Source: Eledone cirrhosa (lineage: Eukaryota). Taken from it: a stretch of DNA of 64,000 nucleotides. Shown here one piece after another: positions 5,019-51,496 of the stretch. Below the pieces are notes generated by a model. That model saw nothing but the letters and a program-made list of their open reading frames with translations. It was not told the origin of the DNA and made no database searches. Every line of letters starts with the position of its first letter. Position 1 is the stretch's first letter. The DNA lies in NCBI GenBank assembly GCA_964016885.1, contig OZ024743.1, positions 214,148,001 to 214,212,000 on the forward strand. The letters run 5' to 3'. The position numbers and the translations under genes were made by a program.

Positions 5019-5181
5019 GAAAGTGAGGTTTTTTTACAAAATGAAAAAAAAACGAGGTGTGCTACACAAGTGAAAGTATAAGGTAAAAAGATGAAATCGA
5101 AAAGGCAACTGGAGTGTTTTTGTAAAAAAAATATATATTTATTTGGTTCCTTTAGCGGTTTCGCAGTTCTTGTGCTTTTCA
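5019..5181 (-). mobile_element. PLE pLTR-like fragment with a truncated hammerhead, same family as 25870-26179
   Basis: Homologous to 25870-26111. Minus strand reads TGAAAA GCAC AAGAA CTGC GAAA CCGC TA AAGGAAC. Flanked by (TA)n. Confidence 0.7.
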
Positions 5182-5792
5182 TTATATATATATATATATA
5201 TATATATATATATATATATATGTGTGTGTGTGTGTGGGTGTATGCGCGTTTGTGTGTGTGTGTGTGTGTGTGTGTGTGTGTGTGTGTGTGTGTGTGTGTG
5301 TGTGTGTGTGTGTGTGTGTGTGTGTGTGCGTGTGCGTGCGTACGTATGTGTGTGCGTGTATCAGAAATCATGGGCCAGTCTATATGTGCAAGTCTGTGCG
5401 TCACACTTGTAACGATGTTTGTGTATCGAGGTGTATTTAAATAACTTCAGAAAACTATCTATAAGTTAAATAACTTATATTTAACTAACATTCTCTCTTC
5501 TTTTCCCCCCTCTGCCCCTTCTCTTTCTTTCTTTCTTTCTTTCTTTGTCTCCCACTCTCTCGCTTTATATATATACGTATATATGTATGTATATATATAT
5601 ATATATATATATATATATATATATATATATATATATATATATATATATATATATATATGTATATATATATACAATTCATAATAGAAAAATAAACAATAAG
5701 CATATGTCAAAGAAAATATATTCATAACTACTTCACGCAGACGTTTTATTTTTCTTGGTGCAATACTTACTTATATGTGTATATATATATAT

Positions 5793-5894
5793 AGGAACAA
5801 GTATGACCCCGAGCATGACCCACTCTACTACACTTAGAATTACGTACTTTGGTGCGTTATGGTCCATCTGGTTCCTTACCACAATTCCTTCGTT
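5793..5894 (+). mobile_element. Mini fragment of the family-B pLTR with a 20-bp 5' inversion
   Basis: 5813-5894 matches 13621-13700, and 5793-5812 is the inverse of 13601-13620. (TA)n lies on both sides. Confidence 0.75.
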
Positions 5895-6449
5895 ATATAT
5901 ATATATATATGTATATATATATATATATATATATATATATATATATATATATATATATATATATATGTTTATATATATATATATTTACATACATATATTC
6001 ATGGTATCTATCTATAATATATATGTGTGTGCATGTATGTATGTGTCTCGGTGTATCTATGTATATATGAAGTTAGTTTTTGTGAGTTCTTATTGTGTCT
6101 ATATTGTGAATATGAGTATCAATGCGGAAAACTGATTACAACTTATAAAATAAAGAAAAAAATGAAACGCAAAATTACTCCGCGTATATGTGTGACCCAA
6201 CATATATGTCATCAACGCTAATGGTCTAGAAAATATCAGATAATTCTCCCACTGTTAACATTTACATGAAACGGCATCCTGATGTGACTAGTGAGATAAG
6301 ACAATCTAGAGACACTAATATACAGCAACATAACAGCAACATAACAGCACGTACTTAAATACATATCTCAAATAAAATAAAATGAATATTATATAGAAAG
6401 TGTCATATTTCTGCGTATGAAATAACTTTTTACATGATAAAACAAACGA

Positions 6450-7250
6450 TGATTAAACAAATCCGATGTTTGAAGAGTTGTTAGTACATCTTATTAAATG
6501 TCACAGTTTACCAACCCACACAGCTCTGAGTTCTACTCCTACCGAACGGCATATAAGCTTTTGGAATCAATAGATAGAACATCCAACGGTCAGTGAATTG
6601 TATTCATTTTTAAATCAACAGATGAAATATTTTACTATACTTTGCCCATTAAGGGCATTATTTCAAATCCCAGTAAAATAGATGGCTTATTGAATAGTAT
6701 CATCAATGGAACACCAATGGACAGAAACTTTGTTACAATGAACACCAAGTCGGCATCATTCCTGATTCCGAAATCAAACAGCCTGCATGTATCGTCTTTA
6801 GTAGGATTCCCACTGTGGTTCAAATACAATTGCTTCTGTTGCAACATTTAAAACGAACTGTATATGGGACATCATGTCACCATACATATTCAGGATGTCC
6901 AGACAATAAGCGTTTGCTAATATGAGGAAATAAATACAATATTATCACAATATCCAGACGAAAATATGGCATATTAAGAAACAAGTAAACTCTTATTATT
7001 TTAAGACAGATTTTGTACGGCGCTTTCAGTCATATAACTCCATATTACAAGATGAAAGACAGGGTTTGACAACTTAAAATTGTTTGTGGGAATGGCGAAA
7101 ATATACCTGTACGGACGTAATTGAACATGTTATTCCTGTTTCATTTAAGATCTAGTACTCAAGGAAACAATTACAGTGTTGGTATCACACATAATAACAC
7201 CAGTTAAGATGCCGCACAGTTGAGCGATTATATTATTTTGCTAATACAGT
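6450..7250 (+). pseudogene. Decayed LRR ectodomain (TLR-like)
   Basis: Frameshifted pieces LESIDRTSN, NELYMGHH (6852), AFANMRK (6910), LRQILYGAFSHIT (7001) and LRRCT-like IYLYGRN*TCYSC (7101). Confidence 0.55.
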
Positions 7251-8027
7251 GACGAGAGGTGGTTGTCAGTCATGGATTCATATGGCTATCATTATGACAG
7301 AAAAAATAAAACCAAAATTCAAAAATATATAACACCCACAAAACATGCGAAAGTATTTAAGTTAAGCGTGATATTTGAAATGATTTCATCAAAATCTCAA
7401 TACATTAATTATCAAATAAGTAAGGAAACTATTTAATATGAAAAATAGTAAATGCGAAATTACGCCAGTAAATTTAACGCACCGATATAACTTATCTGTT
7501 TTAATCATTTTCTTCATTTATTTAGTTTTTACAAAATAAAATCTATTAAATGGTTAACTCTATCTAACTACTCTAAATTTGATAAATATATACAAACGCA
7601 ACAACAAACATCAGACGCACACACACACACAGACACAGATATATATATATACACTTCCTTTTGTATTTTATTTGATGTGAAATCATATGTAGAAAGGGTT
7701 ATTCTTTTATTTTGGCATGATCATGCTACTAAGCATTCGTTGAATTTCACATCAGTTTTGTTATTTTTAGATATCCTATTGTTAGGATGGACCCAGAGTA
7801 ACAGATTCATCAGCAAACAAACTCAAGATTGGACAGTTAATTTTCCAAAGCGATAGCGCCAAAACTAGATTAAAAAATGGCTGAGAATCGTGACGAAATG
7901 GTATATATTTTATCTAATAATTCCAAGGAGATGATTTATATATATATATATATATATATATATATATGAAAGACGTAAAATAAGAAAATTTTAAAAATTA
8001 AAAATTAACTTACTTACTAAAATTTTC

Positions 8028-8082
8028 ACTCCAACTAATTAGTTTCTGTAATCATCGAGAATTCATTACGTCATCAGGGAGT
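8028..8082 (-). ncRNA. Type I hammerhead ribozyme motif
   Basis: ACTCC CTGATGA C-GTAAT...ATTAC-A GAAA CTAATTAG TT GGAGT: 5-bp stem I, palindromic stem III, GUU site. Confidence 0.8.
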
Positions 8083-48970: not shown

Positions 48971-49945
48971 ATATATATATATATATATATATATTATATA
49001 TTGTCTGTGTGTATATATATATATATATATATATATATATATATATATATATATATATATATATATATATATATATATATATACATATATATATATATAT
49101 ATAAATGTAAGTATGTATGTATACGTACATACATATATGTATACAGACGTACAGCAGCATGCATATATACATATATATATATATATATATATATATATAT
49201 ATATATATATATATATATATATACATATACATACATGCATACAGGTACACATACATATATGCACGCATCCGTTTAGCCGACGTTTATTATAACGCCGCTT
49301 TGTTCGTTTGTTTGTCAACAAACCGACAGCCTGAATTTATGCCTGTTTGTTGACAAACAAACGAACAAAGCGGCGTTATAATAAACGTCGGCTAAACTGA
49401 TATATGTATGTGTACCTGTATGCATGTATGTATATGTATATATATATATATATATATATATATTGTTATACTTTGGGAGGGTCATGTTGCCAATAAGAAA
49501 CACACGCACCAGTTGCTTTCACTTCAATTTAATTTAATATATATTTATAAATTTACAAATTTATAAATTTCTGGTTGGTTGGTTGGTTCCACAACCAGAT
49601 AGTTGTTTATATATATATAGTCATAGTTCTTTCGTCACACACTCTGTGACCTCTTCAGTGACTGGGGATTTCTTTCTTCGTTTCTGTGCCTTTCCTTTCT
49701 TCTATCCTACGCCATTTTGTTTGTGTGTGGGTTGCGTGCTCAGTTTGCGCATGCGCCACATCCGGGTGTCTGTGTGTGTTTGTGTTCATTTTTCTATTTT
49801 TATATTTTTATATTTATATTTGTTTGTTTATTTATTTATTTATTGTTGGTTGGTTGTTTGTTCTATGTGTGTGTGTGTTTTCATTTTGTGTGTGTTTTCA
49901 ATTGTAAGTTGTTTATATATGTGTGTGTGTGTTTTCATTTTGTCC

Positions 49946-50540
49946 TTAATTGTAAGTTGTGATGTTGCTGTTCCACTCATATTTTCTATTTAATTTTGGT
50001 TTTAATTCTTTTATGCTTACTGCCTCTGTAATTTGCCTAAACATTGCGTCTTTCTTGTGTGTGGATTCTATTTTTATTTCTATGCTCTCTAATTTACCCC
50101 TGTGTTCTATCTTAGCATGTTGGTAGAGCACAGATGATTCTTTACTATCTTGGAGGTCTCGCCAGTGTTCATTTATTCGTTCCCCTATACTACGAGCTGT
50201 CTCACCTATGTACACTATATTTTTGTTTCTACATTGTCCCTCAGTACATCTTATGCTATATACTACATTTCTAGTTTTACAGTTAATATGGGGGCTTATT
50301 TTACAGGTTATACATTTCTTATCTATACATGAGGGTCTTTGGAACGGGTATGTCTTGCTAATAAGTGTTTTTACGGAGGTACCAGGTCTTTCTACTATCT
50401 TAATATTGAGATTATGTTTCTTTAGGGCCCTTCTAAATTTGTAGGCTAGTTCACCTCTAGGGGTTGTATTGATGAACATTACACTCTGGTATTTATTGCT
50501 ATCATACCATGAGTTTATTCTATTGGCCTTGTTCTTAGTT
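49946..50540 (-). CDS. GIY-YIG endonuclease C-terminus of a PLE polyprotein (inverted copy)
   Basis: C..KCITC..C..RNVVY.I.C..C..VYIGETARS..R..EH; RQITEAVSI..LNRKYEW. Confidence 0.85.
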
Positions 50541-50552
50541 ATTAATAGAAAG

Positions 50553-51147
50553 AACTAAGAACAAGGCCAATAGAATAAACTCATGGTATGATAGCAATAA
50601 ATACCAGAGTGTAATGTTCATCAATACAACCCCTAGAGGTGAACTAGCCTACAAATTTAGAAGGGCCCTAAAGAAACATAATCTCAATATTAAGATAGTA
50701 GAAAGACCTGGTACCTCCGTAAAAACACTTATTAGCAAGACATACCCGTTCCAAAGACCCTCATGTATAGATAAGAAATGTATAACCTGTAAAATAAGCC
50801 CCCATATTAACTGTAAAACTAGAAATGTAGTATATAGCATAAGATGTACTGAGGGACAATGTAGAAACAAAAATATAGTGTACATAGGTGAGACAGCTCG
50901 TAGTATAGGGGAACGAATAAATGAACACTGGCGAGACCTCCAAGATAGTAAAGAATCATCTGTGCTCTACCAACATGCTAAGATAGAACACAGGGGTAAA
51001 TTAGAGAGCATAGAAATAAAAATAGAATCCACACACAAGAAAGACGCAATGTTTAGGCAAATTACAGAGGCAGTAAGCATAAAAGAATTAAAACCAAAAT
51101 TAAATAGAAAATATGAGTGGAACAGCAACATCACAACTTACAATTAA
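50553..51147 (+). CDS. GIY-YIG endonuclease C-terminus of a PLE polyprotein, 5'-truncated
   Basis: Same 177 aa as the inverted copy. The frame is open upstream of the Met (SWYDSNKYQSVMF), so this is a truncation, not a standalone gene. Confidence 0.85.
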
Positions 51148-51451
51148 GGACAAAATGAAAACACACACACACATATATAAACAACTTACAATTGAAAACA
51201 CACACAAAATGAAAACACACACAAGACAAAATGAAAACACACACACACATAGAACAAACAACCAACCAACAATAAATAAATAAATAAACAAACAAATATA
51301 AATATAAAAATATAAAAATAGAAAAATGAACACAAACACACACAGACACCCGGATGTGGCGCATGCGCAAACTGAGCACGCAACCCACACACAAACAAAA
51401 TGGCGTAGGATAGAAGAAAGGAAAGGCACAGAAACGAAGAAAGAAATCCCC

Positions 51452-51496
51452 AGTCACTGAAGAGGTCACAGAGTGTGTGACGAAAGAACTATGACT
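51452..51496 (+). ncRNA. Minimal hammerhead (family C)
   Basis: AGTCA CTGAAGA G GTCACA GAGTG TGTGAC GAAA GAAC TA TGACT. Confidence 0.8.

Follow-up and report, generated by a model that had tools for sequence, protein, structure and literature searches.

A 64-kb window of Eledone cirrhosa DNA dense in type I hammerhead motifs, read as insertions of PLEs and their non-autonomous passengers

Minimal hammerheads numbering in the thousands per genome and falling into many families have already been described, including pairs that lie 100-700 bp apart on opposite strands (PMC4209133). A coral holds more than 6000 motifs in 16 families, and the axolotl up to 120,000 retrozyme copies (PMC7229834). 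In the hammerhead table for Hydra-clade PLEs, U.U or G.U at 10.1-11.1 and U or A as H17 are common (PMC8557442), and retrozymes canonically have a helix I of 6 bp and a 4-bp helix II (PMC4209133). The hammerhead was found to be dispensable for insertion in vitro, with no reads ending at the cut site (PMC11167929), and eight of nine Xenopus dimers were without cleavage. Against this background, the stretch of DNA that we analysed (64,000 nucleotides, hereafter the window) is best read as a dump site for PLEs and non-autonomous passengers, each bearing a type I hammerhead close to its 3' end (pseudo-LTR), and we give this reading a probability of about 0.88. What the analysis shows is the layout of the motifs, their excess over chance, their place in PLE tails, the anatomy of the insertions, covariation, and the high copy number of two of the families.

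The original prediction had placed about 20 hammerhead-like motifs from about 10 families in the window, proposing shuffled sequence and stem covariation as checks. We scored the sites, named here by their first-reported positions, with a perfect-core descriptor (C3:G8 or U3:A8) and with a type I bit-score descriptor that permits one helix defect and has a threshold of 26 bits. All nine perfect cores (8028, 8957, 13514, 21756, 22121, 22431, 47823, 49619, and 51452) are at predicted sites, as are all 17 matches of at least 26 bits, and no other site in the window reaches that score. Six further sites have a single core defect, namely G5U at 11964, U4A at 11739, 16346, and 17715, U4C at 15444, and GAAA minus one A at 33585, while 26069 has a U3:A8 core with a stem I of just 3 bp and a mismatch in stem II. 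Thus 16 of the 20 sites have the core (CUGANGA or U3:A8 ... GAAA ... UH, open stem I) in proper register with at most one defect. The exceptions are 48261, whose own stems I and III are broken and which scores solely in a register that is not homologous, and three sites that the bit-score descriptor did not match: 11840 (a family B copy with U4A and G5A), 5146 (a family D copy ending inside core 1), and 15778. The last is a half motif without a usable core 1 or stem I; it has no homologue in the window and no descriptor match, and lacks support as a hammerhead. The remaining 19 sites belong to 13 insertions and eight lineages (nine if families E and F are counted apart), so they are not independent. 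About one third of the site count consists of inverted or tandem partners inside one insertion.

A search with all six segment orders showed that all eight matches above 30 bits are type I, with no type II or III match in the window at 26 bits. Enrichment is confined to the type I order. The claim that the islands between TA tracts fold into type I hammerheads was too strong: in minimal windows the folding z-score was below -2 at only 2 of 15 sites, most sites fold no better than shuffles, and the three-way junction is the minimum-energy fold for 13514 and 47823 only. Rfam gave no hammerhead family among the matches listed (the best 150 of 218), a list crowded with TA-repeat miRNA matches. A TA tract lies at most 271 nt away on the 3' side of 18 of the 20 sites, compared with 25% of random positions that have one within 300. 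Inverted partners are present in families A to F and two alternative 3' ends in A, B, C, and D, and 6 of 14 mapped 5' truncations fall between 20 nt before and 3 nt after C3.

Family A belongs to a PLE of the Neptune/Nematis type, with the following features:

49460..51711, unstranded: palindromic PLE insertion in which two 5'-truncated copies stand head to head, each with its end at (TA)n
50539..51147, plus: C-terminal 202 aa of a PLE protein, with CX4CxxC linker and GIY-YIG endonuclease
51452..51496, plus: hammerhead with perfect core, predicted cut after 51491
49619..49663, minus: hammerhead with perfect core in the inverted arm of the 49460..51711 insertion
8957..9001, minus: hammerhead with perfect core in a stub of 277 nt (9001 to 8725) that has TA tracts on either side
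48260..48304, plus: decayed hammerhead in stub 48204-48509, with breaks in stems I and III

The hammerhead at 51452 is a minimal one, with a 5-bp stem I, an extra G following A9, a 6-bp stem II, and a 2-bp stem III; it lies on the sense strand, 3' of the GIY-YIG stop by about 305 nt. The GIY-YIG domain matches Pfam PF01541 at 23.2 bits (cutoff 22.6) and has a mirror copy on the minus strand (49946-50554); its translation reads as a CX2-5CxxC linker with CCHH in a C-terminal GIY-YIG. Neptune and Nematis are not separable for this element because the RT is absent from the window copies. The two arms stop 164 and 221 nt past the predicted cut site, and across the family the 3' end is at +221 in four copies and at +164 in two inverted partners. 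The stub at 9001 begins at the first base of stem I. At 48261 and 48294, the majority letters of public runs mend both broken pairs of the decayed copy. The family lacks a palindrome in stem III, which forms a weak self-duplex (-1.7 and +1.4 kcal/mol). In public runs from one sample, 9,826-11,047 contigs per run matched 841 bases of families A and F, so at least these two are highly repeated in this organism. The predicted very large and diverse population holds to that extent, but the surprise was overstated, since thousands per genome had already been published.

Family B is carried by a Hydra-clade PLE:

9455..11627, minus: decayed near-full Hydra-clade PLE ORF (RT and C-terminal GIY-YIG), with stops and a frameshift
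11740..11788, minus: motif in the pseudo-LTR upstream of the ORF, with U4A, U.U at 10.1-11.1, and H17=U
11840..11890, plus: motif in the inverted partner, with U4A and G5A
16346..16396, minus: motif about 930 nt 3' of a GIY-YIG fragment (17323-17718)
17715..17765, plus: motif at the head of an inverted partner, beginning at the first base of stem I

This element has the marks of its clade, namely DKT, CxxC and CxH in the EN, a length under 3 kb, and a (TA)n target, with RWR replacing RWK. In its CxCX5C linker the third cysteine is F in the decayed copy and intact in the homologues P0004 and P0009. U4A occurs in all four family B copies, which come from two insertions, and the canonical core is thus lacking; the change is absent from the rows of the Hydra-clade hammerhead table (PMC8557442) that we compared and is not named in the text of PMC3088659. 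As in family A (51452, 49619), the motifs at 16346 and 11739 lie on the sense strand, either 3' of the RT/GIY-YIG ORF or in the repeat before it.

The next hammerheads and hammerhead-like motifs have no PLE ORF attached within the window, and neither do families E and F; a half motif is listed last:

13514..13607, plus: family C hammerhead with U3:A8 core, long stem II, 6-bp stem III, and GUC site
11964..12057, minus: family C motif with G5U in the inverted arm
26072..26107, plus: family D motif with U3:A8 core, palindromic stem III, and decayed stems
5146..5182, minus: family D remnant, 5'-truncated within core 1, against a TA tract
8028..8082, minus: single hammerhead with perfect core, C.A at 10.1-11.1, 10-nt palindromic stem III, and H17=U
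15444..15497, plus: single hammerhead-like motif with U4C, C.A at 10.1-11.1, 7-bp stem II, and GAAA loop (28.8 bits)
33585..33659, plus: single hammerhead-like motif with GAAA minus one A and GUC site (35.4 bits)
15776..15794, minus: half motif, GAAA and 8-nt palindrome, unsupported as a hammerhead

The family C insertion (11952-13700) is non-coding throughout, the inverted partner of the family D motif runs from 26037 to about 25900, and neither 8028 nor 15444 has a further copy in the window. Stem III had been predicted to be often palindromic. It is so in E, 26069, and 8028, but the third palindrome cited occurs only at 15778. The attribution to PLEs and retrozyme-type elements is supported, the motifs belonging to PLE tails and a retrozyme-like repeat. 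Not all of them are minimal, as stem III has 4-6 bp in C, F, 8028, B, and 33585.

The retrozyme-like repeat is formed by families E and F:

21590..22598, unstranded: insertion E, retrozyme-like, with a 310-nt unit and TA tracts at both ends
21756..21798, minus: family E hammerhead with 6-bp stem I, U.U and 4-bp stem II, palindromic 3-bp stem III, and H17=A
22121..22163, plus: family E hammerhead, first of a tandem pair, with perfect core and its partner 310 nt away
22431..22473, plus: family E hammerhead, second of the pair, extended stem I folding at z -5.05
47821..47872, minus: family F hammerhead with consensus core and GUC site

Insertion E holds about 1.5 units on the minus strand (22054 to 21590) and 1.6 on the plus strand (22107-22598), the copies being 99-100% identical. 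The unit has 35% GC, a longest open frame of 59 aa, and hammerheads in consecutive units (22121, 22431), which places it within the retrozyme definition of a non-coding tandem unit of 150-450 bp with GC below 50% and a type I hammerhead in consecutive units. Folded as a circle, the monomer reaches -67.8 kcal/mol (z -3.9 against 60 shuffles) with 58% of its bases paired. The family F unit of 313 nt (47669-48005) is homologous to E at 62-64% identity, and its inverted partner (48008-48174) begins within core 1. In E, an internal loop follows the 6-bp stem I. Between E and F, stem I and its extension keep 19 of 21 pairs, with 10 double changes and three one-sided G.U changes, compared with 0-1 double changes when the register is slid. 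The predicted stem covariation is therefore found, in two lineages, and is good sequence evidence that the RNA fold has been under selection in master lineages. Majority letters from the public runs mend four broken pairs in F, and two of the nine variant positions tested, among those listed, break a pair: 47871 (majority in two of three runs, at the edge of an internal loop) and 47887 (15-45%).

The strongest rival concerns E and F only, and holds that they are the tail of an autonomous PLE, truncated and duplicated in tandem at insertion or later, with no mobile retrozyme. Each arm has just 1.1-1.6 units, partial tandems are known from PLE insertions, and our search for a PLE homologue was confined to the 64-kb window, where no homology of E/F to the A or B pseudo-LTR was found. 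However, in both subfamilies, though only 62-64% alike, the unit returns at 310-313 nt to its own 3' end, and the period of a third relative is 282 nt; there is no ORF, and helices I and II have the canonical retrozyme sizes of 6 and 4 bp (PMC4209133). We therefore consider this rival unlikely. A second possibility, that the arms are inverted repeats formed at the DNA level (as MITE-like ends or through hairpin-driven conversion) with incidental cores, gains something from the abundance of palindromic insertions in the window and from the folding of E and F arms on both strands. Yet the hammerhead strand folds better (z -5.05 versus -3.30, and -2.32 versus -1.64), the core is kept as the stems change, and all three one-sided E/F changes are G.U on the hammerhead strand but would be A.C on the opposite one, which makes this possibility highly improbable.

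That a small, permissive motif matches by chance in AT-rich repetitive DNA is largely refuted, and we give it minimal credence. Relaxed cores without a score floor do yield 3.7 +/- 2.1 matches per shuffled window, repeats inflate the counts, 15778 fits such an origin, and 26069 and 15444 are close to threshold (27-29 bits). The bit score was also tuned on the predicted motifs (an earlier version overlooked family C and 15444, and a bulge option and milder G.U score were then added), so its 17 matches, against 0.08 +/- 0.28 (maximum 1) in 60 shuffles and none in the reversed sequence, are a less clean test than the perfect cores. The latter number nine, spanning five families plus 8028, against 0.18 +/- 0.39 in 60 local dinucleotide shuffles and none reversed, and the sense-strand placement behind PLE genes, the covariation, and the restriction of the enrichment to the type I order also oppose chance. 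That the host keeps the motifs as ribozymes regulating a gene nearby is scarcely credible, with no point found in its favour and with motifs that occur in both orientations, nested in retroelement debris, the single copies being decayed relative to the family majority.

Under the PLE-and-passenger reading, nicking, priming, cleavage, dimers, circles, and the mobiliser of E/F can be modelled on the literature. The GIY-YIG nuclease of the element would nick a (TA)n tract, and the RT would copy RNA from one of two fixed starts, 20-220 nt past the ribozyme. Most copies would terminate prematurely, in many cases once a switch has added an inverted partner, and the residue would be a short hammerhead stub adjoining (TA)n, with later elements entering the same tracts. 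In the transcript, the hammerhead would cut tandem RNA into units. The minimal motifs of A, D, and E would probably cleave as dimers through an intermolecular stem III, or aided by an element protein, and C and F could cleave as monomers. The E/F unit would probably be processed to monomers or circles and then reinserted by PLE proteins. Many of the window copies are probably dead.

A bolder and rather doubtful version would jointly propose one of the largest hammerhead loads known, a 310-nt retrozyme written into (TA)n by Penelope proteins, and a spread U4A Hydra-clade family. The load may be at least 10^5, should 140-270 per Mb be representative of a large genome; the nine perfect cores in 64 kb amount to about 140 per Mb, were the window typical. 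Penelope proteins may write E/F, as suggested by the common inverted-partner footprint, and the RT may be prone to stopping or switching at the ribozyme's 5' edge. If true, the spread of the U4A family would mean a natural variant that is active, or else would prove that PLEs need no cleavage to spread. Because the class is known, the value of the window is practical: it is a natural hammerhead panel (minimal, U3:A8, U.U, U4A, and long stem III) linked with two PLE clades and one retrozyme lineage. It bears on the role of hammerheads in PLEs and on which element mobilises animal retrozymes, and a young retrozyme with PLE-style anatomy beside a PLE family with a fixed core change allows both questions to be tested in a single organism.

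The motifs are real and dense, with predicted cleavage, but they are of a kind already described. Like the min-HHRs of PLE pseudo-LTRs, they are type I with a helix I of 4-5 bp and a large helix II, have an extra base between 9 and 10.1 in family A and a small palindromic helix III, and occur mainly as single truncated copies in many families, with opposite-strand pairs; they differ in their high local density and in the non-palindromic stem III of family A (PMC4209133). U3-A8, U.U at 10.1-11.1, palindromic stem III, and opposite-strand pairs have all been published before. Families C and D share the U3-A8 variant with the min-HHRs of metazoan PLEs, but the 54-nt stem II region and 6-bp stem III of C are unlike the published ones (PMC4209133). 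Penelope elements are already known to leave fixed double 3' ends at (TA)n and inverted partners with 5' truncations; the two 3' ends match a PLE tail and double RT start (PMC11167929; PMC8557442). The tails here, of about 55-90 nt, exceed the published length of 30-40. Element A resembles the Neptune/Nematis C-terminal EN+ PLEs in its CX2-5CxxC linker, (TA)n target, tail, a pair of cysteines within the GIY-YIG with later histidines, and hammerhead in the 3' region (PMC8557442). Element B resembles Hydra-clade PLEs in its single ORF of an element under 3 kb, DKT, C-terminal GIY-YIG with CxxC and CxH, (TA)n target, inverted 5' partner, and hammerhead with U.U at 10.1-11.1 and H17=U, but differs in U4A in all four copies, a longer loop III, and loss of the third linker cysteine in the decayed copy (PMC8557442). 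Finally, E/F resembles the animal non-LTR retrozymes in its highly self-paired, low-GC, non-coding tandem unit of about 310 nt, its type I hammerhead with 6-bp helix I and 4-bp helix II, and its coexistence with PLEs (PMC7229834), and shares the U.U at the base of helix II with axolotl HHR_Amex2 (PMC7229834; bioRxiv 10.64898/2026.07.22.740005); unlike long retrozyme arrays (PMC7229834), it lies as inverted partial tandems in (TA)n, which is the PLE insertion pattern.

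The original prediction placed 20 type I hammerhead-like motifs in the window, here named by their start coordinates, and comparison with shuffled controls supports the view that such motifs are real. Our descriptor followed the type I order of stem I, first core, stem II, GAAA, stem III, UH and stem I. Its strictest form had one match in the window (47823), while the perfect-core form, which tolerates U3:A8, a mismatch at 10.1-11.1 or a single base inserted after A9, had nine. Sixty shuffles, done in 500-base blocks, averaged 0.18 +/- 0.39, and the reversed sequence had none. 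One core change combined with a pairing weight of at least 24 gave 13 matches against 1.0 +/- 1.1. A first bit-score version gave 14 matches at 24 bits, and a revised one, with bulges added and the G.U penalty eased, gave 17 at 26 bits against 0.08 +/- 0.28 in shuffles. All 17 are predicted sites, but because the score was tuned on these sites it ranks them and does not prove them. The score of 48261 was obtained in the wrong register, and 11840, 5146 and 15778 went unscored. Self-comparison of the window identifies 11840 as a clear family B copy and 5146 as a clear family D copy, whereas 15778 has neither a homologue in the window nor a usable first core and was rejected as a hammerhead.

A perfect-core scan of all six segment orders gave eight type I matches at 26 bits and no type II or type III hammerheads in the window. 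The minimal motif windows are mostly no better folded than shuffles (z below -2 in 2 of 15). Among the 150 of 218 Rfam matches listed there was no hammerhead family, only low miRNA/snoRNA-type scores on TA palindromes. A match in a non-circular order at ~36490-36640 (plus strand; 29.8 bits, 0.004 expected in 1500 shuffles) was set aside as likely chance, being a single copy over a long AT-rich span. Two further long-span matches scored 25.5-25.8 bits against ~0.06 expected, so the null seems too lenient for long spans. A long-span type I match absent from the original prediction, with a palindromic stem III and 25.5 bits, lies at 28446-28557 (plus strand), where it is antisense to a LINE remnant and at its edge. 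A 130-bp repeat (14312-14441 and 15136-15263, copies 88% alike and 824 bp apart) has core-like pieces on the minus strand and was rejected for want of stem II.

The window, presumed to be animal DNA, has a GC content of 33% and is rich in (TA)n tracts. It contains LINE reverse transcriptase (RT) fragments, Tc1/mariner fragments and remnants of Penelope-like elements (PLEs). Its self-comparison assigned 19 sites to 13 insertions, in hammerhead families A to F and three motifs that are single-copy within the window (8028, 15444 and 33585).

Elements and other repeats in the window
49460-51711: palindromic family A insertion, two 5'-truncated copies (self-comparison)
8725-9001 and 48204-48509: shorter family A stubs (self-comparison)
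11627 to 9455: decayed family B ORF, 54% identical to homologue P0001 over 531 residues
11952-13700: family C insertion, anatomy as in A and B, without ORF
25900-26170 and 5000-5182: family D insertions, anatomy as in A and B, without ORF
26470-28137 (minus), 58152-59141 (plus), 41168-41551 (minus) and 60620-61051 (plus): two LINE RT and two Tc1/mariner transposase remnants
19056-19259, 31077-31284, 34131-34341, 37751-37993 and 53003-53751: examples of a SINE-like repeat

The assignment of these motifs to the type I class of PLE pLTRs and retrozymes proved right. Each copy in 49460-51711 encodes the C-terminal 202 residues of a PLE protein, with GIY-YIG and a CX4CxxC linker, and carries the family A motif ~305 nt past the GIY-YIG stop on the same strand. 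The family B ORF has RWR, DKT, CxxC and CxH, the marks of the Hydra clade, whose PLEs are reported solely from aquatic invertebrates (PMC8557442, in part). Family B motifs lie in the repeat preceding the ORF (11739), past another GIY-YIG fragment (16346), and also in each of the two inverted partners. The 310-nt E unit forms partial tandems on both strands, and its relative F, with a unit of 313 nt, is 62-64% identical to it. A third, decayed E/F relative at 46855-47260 (minus) has a period of 282 nt and retains a broken remnant of the hammerhead. A decayed PLE RT fragment with the YVDD region, related to homologues of the family A element, occupies 32712-32972 (plus). It shares its strand with the 33585 motif, which follows after ~620 bp that include TA tracts. 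At 9165-9376 (plus), an inverted RT piece, 95% identical to 11279-11068, sits at the 3' end of the family B element. A search of viral contigs with the RT of that element gave five pattern matches and none confirmed, and metagenome scans had no match to the family A or family B pattern. The SINE-like repeat (190 bp, ~10 copies, 70-95% alike) is unrelated to the hammerhead families.

The insertions also share a footprint. A TA tract lies at most 271 nt away on the 3' side of 18 of the 20 sites, compared with 25% of random positions having one within 300. At 16 of the 20 sites the nearer tract is the 3' one. This enrichment is supporting only, since the sites were sought between TA tracts and are non-independent. 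Five of the position 17 anchors behind these distances were off by 1-3 nt, which alters the distances by that much at most. The remaining two run into the ORF (11739) and into the next unit (22121). Family A copies end 221 nt past the cut site in four cases and 164 nt past it in two inverted partners, and families B, C and D likewise have one short and one long 3' end. This pattern matches the published PLE tail, attributed to two RT start sites (PMC11167929), as well as the preference for (TA)n and the inverted and tandem structures described for PLEs (PMC8557442, in part). Palindromes of 60-370 bp, almost perfect but without a hammerhead, occur at TA tracts or around them (1438-1807, 13973-14219, 49271-49397 and 39992-40057). 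They are probably pairs of inverted PLE-type tails whose truncation lies 3' of the ribozyme. In insertion E, the junction of the inverted and direct arms contains, at 22053-22111, a 59-bp copy (98%) of 21214-21272. The latter sequence lies ~320 bp beyond the insertion, which suggests that the template was switched to flanking DNA.

Stubs starting at the cleavage site were unsupported, as none of 14 mapped 5' ends falls there and the nearest lies 4 nt before it. The 5' ends may instead cluster at the 5' edge of the ribozyme (6 of 14), a figure biased by references chosen around the motif and by copies extending far upstream going uncounted. A family C tail stub (5790-5893) has a short inverted partner (~5790-5808) that by eye appears to start ~2 nt before the predicted cut. 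A hexamer shared near several element ends occurs in 16 places.

Covariation is seen between E and F, where in the MAFFT register 19 of the 21 pairs formed by stem I and its distal extension are retained, with 10 double changes and three one-sided G.U changes. Slid registers gave 0-1 double changes. A shuffle count based on two lineages does not amount to a probability. With flanks, the fold z-score is -5.05 on the hammerhead strand versus -3.30 on the opposite strand for E, and -2.32 versus -1.64 for F. None of the 40 variants listed, out of 88 for 47669-48509, is at a core position. At the 11 helix variants among those listed, the majority letter restores a pair that is broken in the window copy in six (47848, 47878, 47890, 47893, 48261 and 48294), keeps one in three (47845, G-C to G.U at 10.1-11.1; 47879; 47886) and breaks one in two (47871 and 47887). 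Four public runs, from at most two samples of one study and as contigs only, placed 9,826-11,047 contigs (three runs) or 350 (the fourth) on this interval, and the best-matching ones may come from the window's own sample. Dips in depth along the interval reflect divergence of the window copy and were disregarded. Among the public runs listed as matching 21000-21905 there was no RNA run, and matches with shares of about 0.25 or lower were left out of account because that interval includes a TA tract. Over the family A motif, word depths sum to 1.3-1.5 million, with single listed contigs at depth 3-36. This sum is no copy number and, allowing for up to 31-fold overlap, we infer thousands to 10^5 copies.

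In the working that we propose, the PLE protein would nick AT-rich DNA and prime reverse transcription inside its own RNA (a step from PMC11167929), the hammerhead would cut tandem transcripts, with minimal forms acting weakly and as dimers (PMC4209133, in part), and retrozyme units would yield circles (PMC7229834, in part). Predicted stem III self-duplexes of -7.5 (E), -8.3 (26069) and -9.0 kcal/mol (8028) would fit dimers, and that of family A is predicted at only -1.7 or +1.4 kcal/mol. Families C and F, with a stem III of 5-6 bp and a GUC site, may cut as lone monomers, and the E monomer folded as a circle has a z of -3.9. Alternatively, the PLE protein might assist the cutting of minimal hammerheads (PMC11167929). 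Cleavage may also be dispensable, by analogy with core mutants that still inserted in vitro (PMC11167929) and with Xenopus dimers, eight of nine of which did not cleave (bioRxiv 10.64898/2026.07.22.740005, in part). Window copies with core changes are probably dead. U4A is common to two family B insertions that are ~95% identical, and thus may predate both.

These motifs are further members of an already known class. The consulted part of PMC4209133 describes thousands of copies in many families, with an extra base after A9, U3-A8, palindromic helix III and opposite-strand pairs. Likewise, the hammerhead table of PMC8557442, as far as seen, has U.U or G.U at 10.1-11.1 and U or A at position 17 as common in Hydra elements, and one element from octopus. 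Non-LTR retrozymes were defined with counts of 5,000 to 120,000 (PMC7229834, in part) and linked to PLE repeats in the available text of bioRxiv 10.64898/2026.07.22.740005. PMC3088659 reports U3-A8, U.U and U4C, and its running text has no occurrence of "U4A". Of the two papers found on hammerhead ribozymes and cephalopods, neither is a genome survey judging by its title. The window goes modestly beyond print in a retrozyme-type unit that combines PLE insertion anatomy with clear covariation, in U4A within a Hydra-clade family, and in a possible clustering of 5' ends at the 5' edge of the ribozyme.
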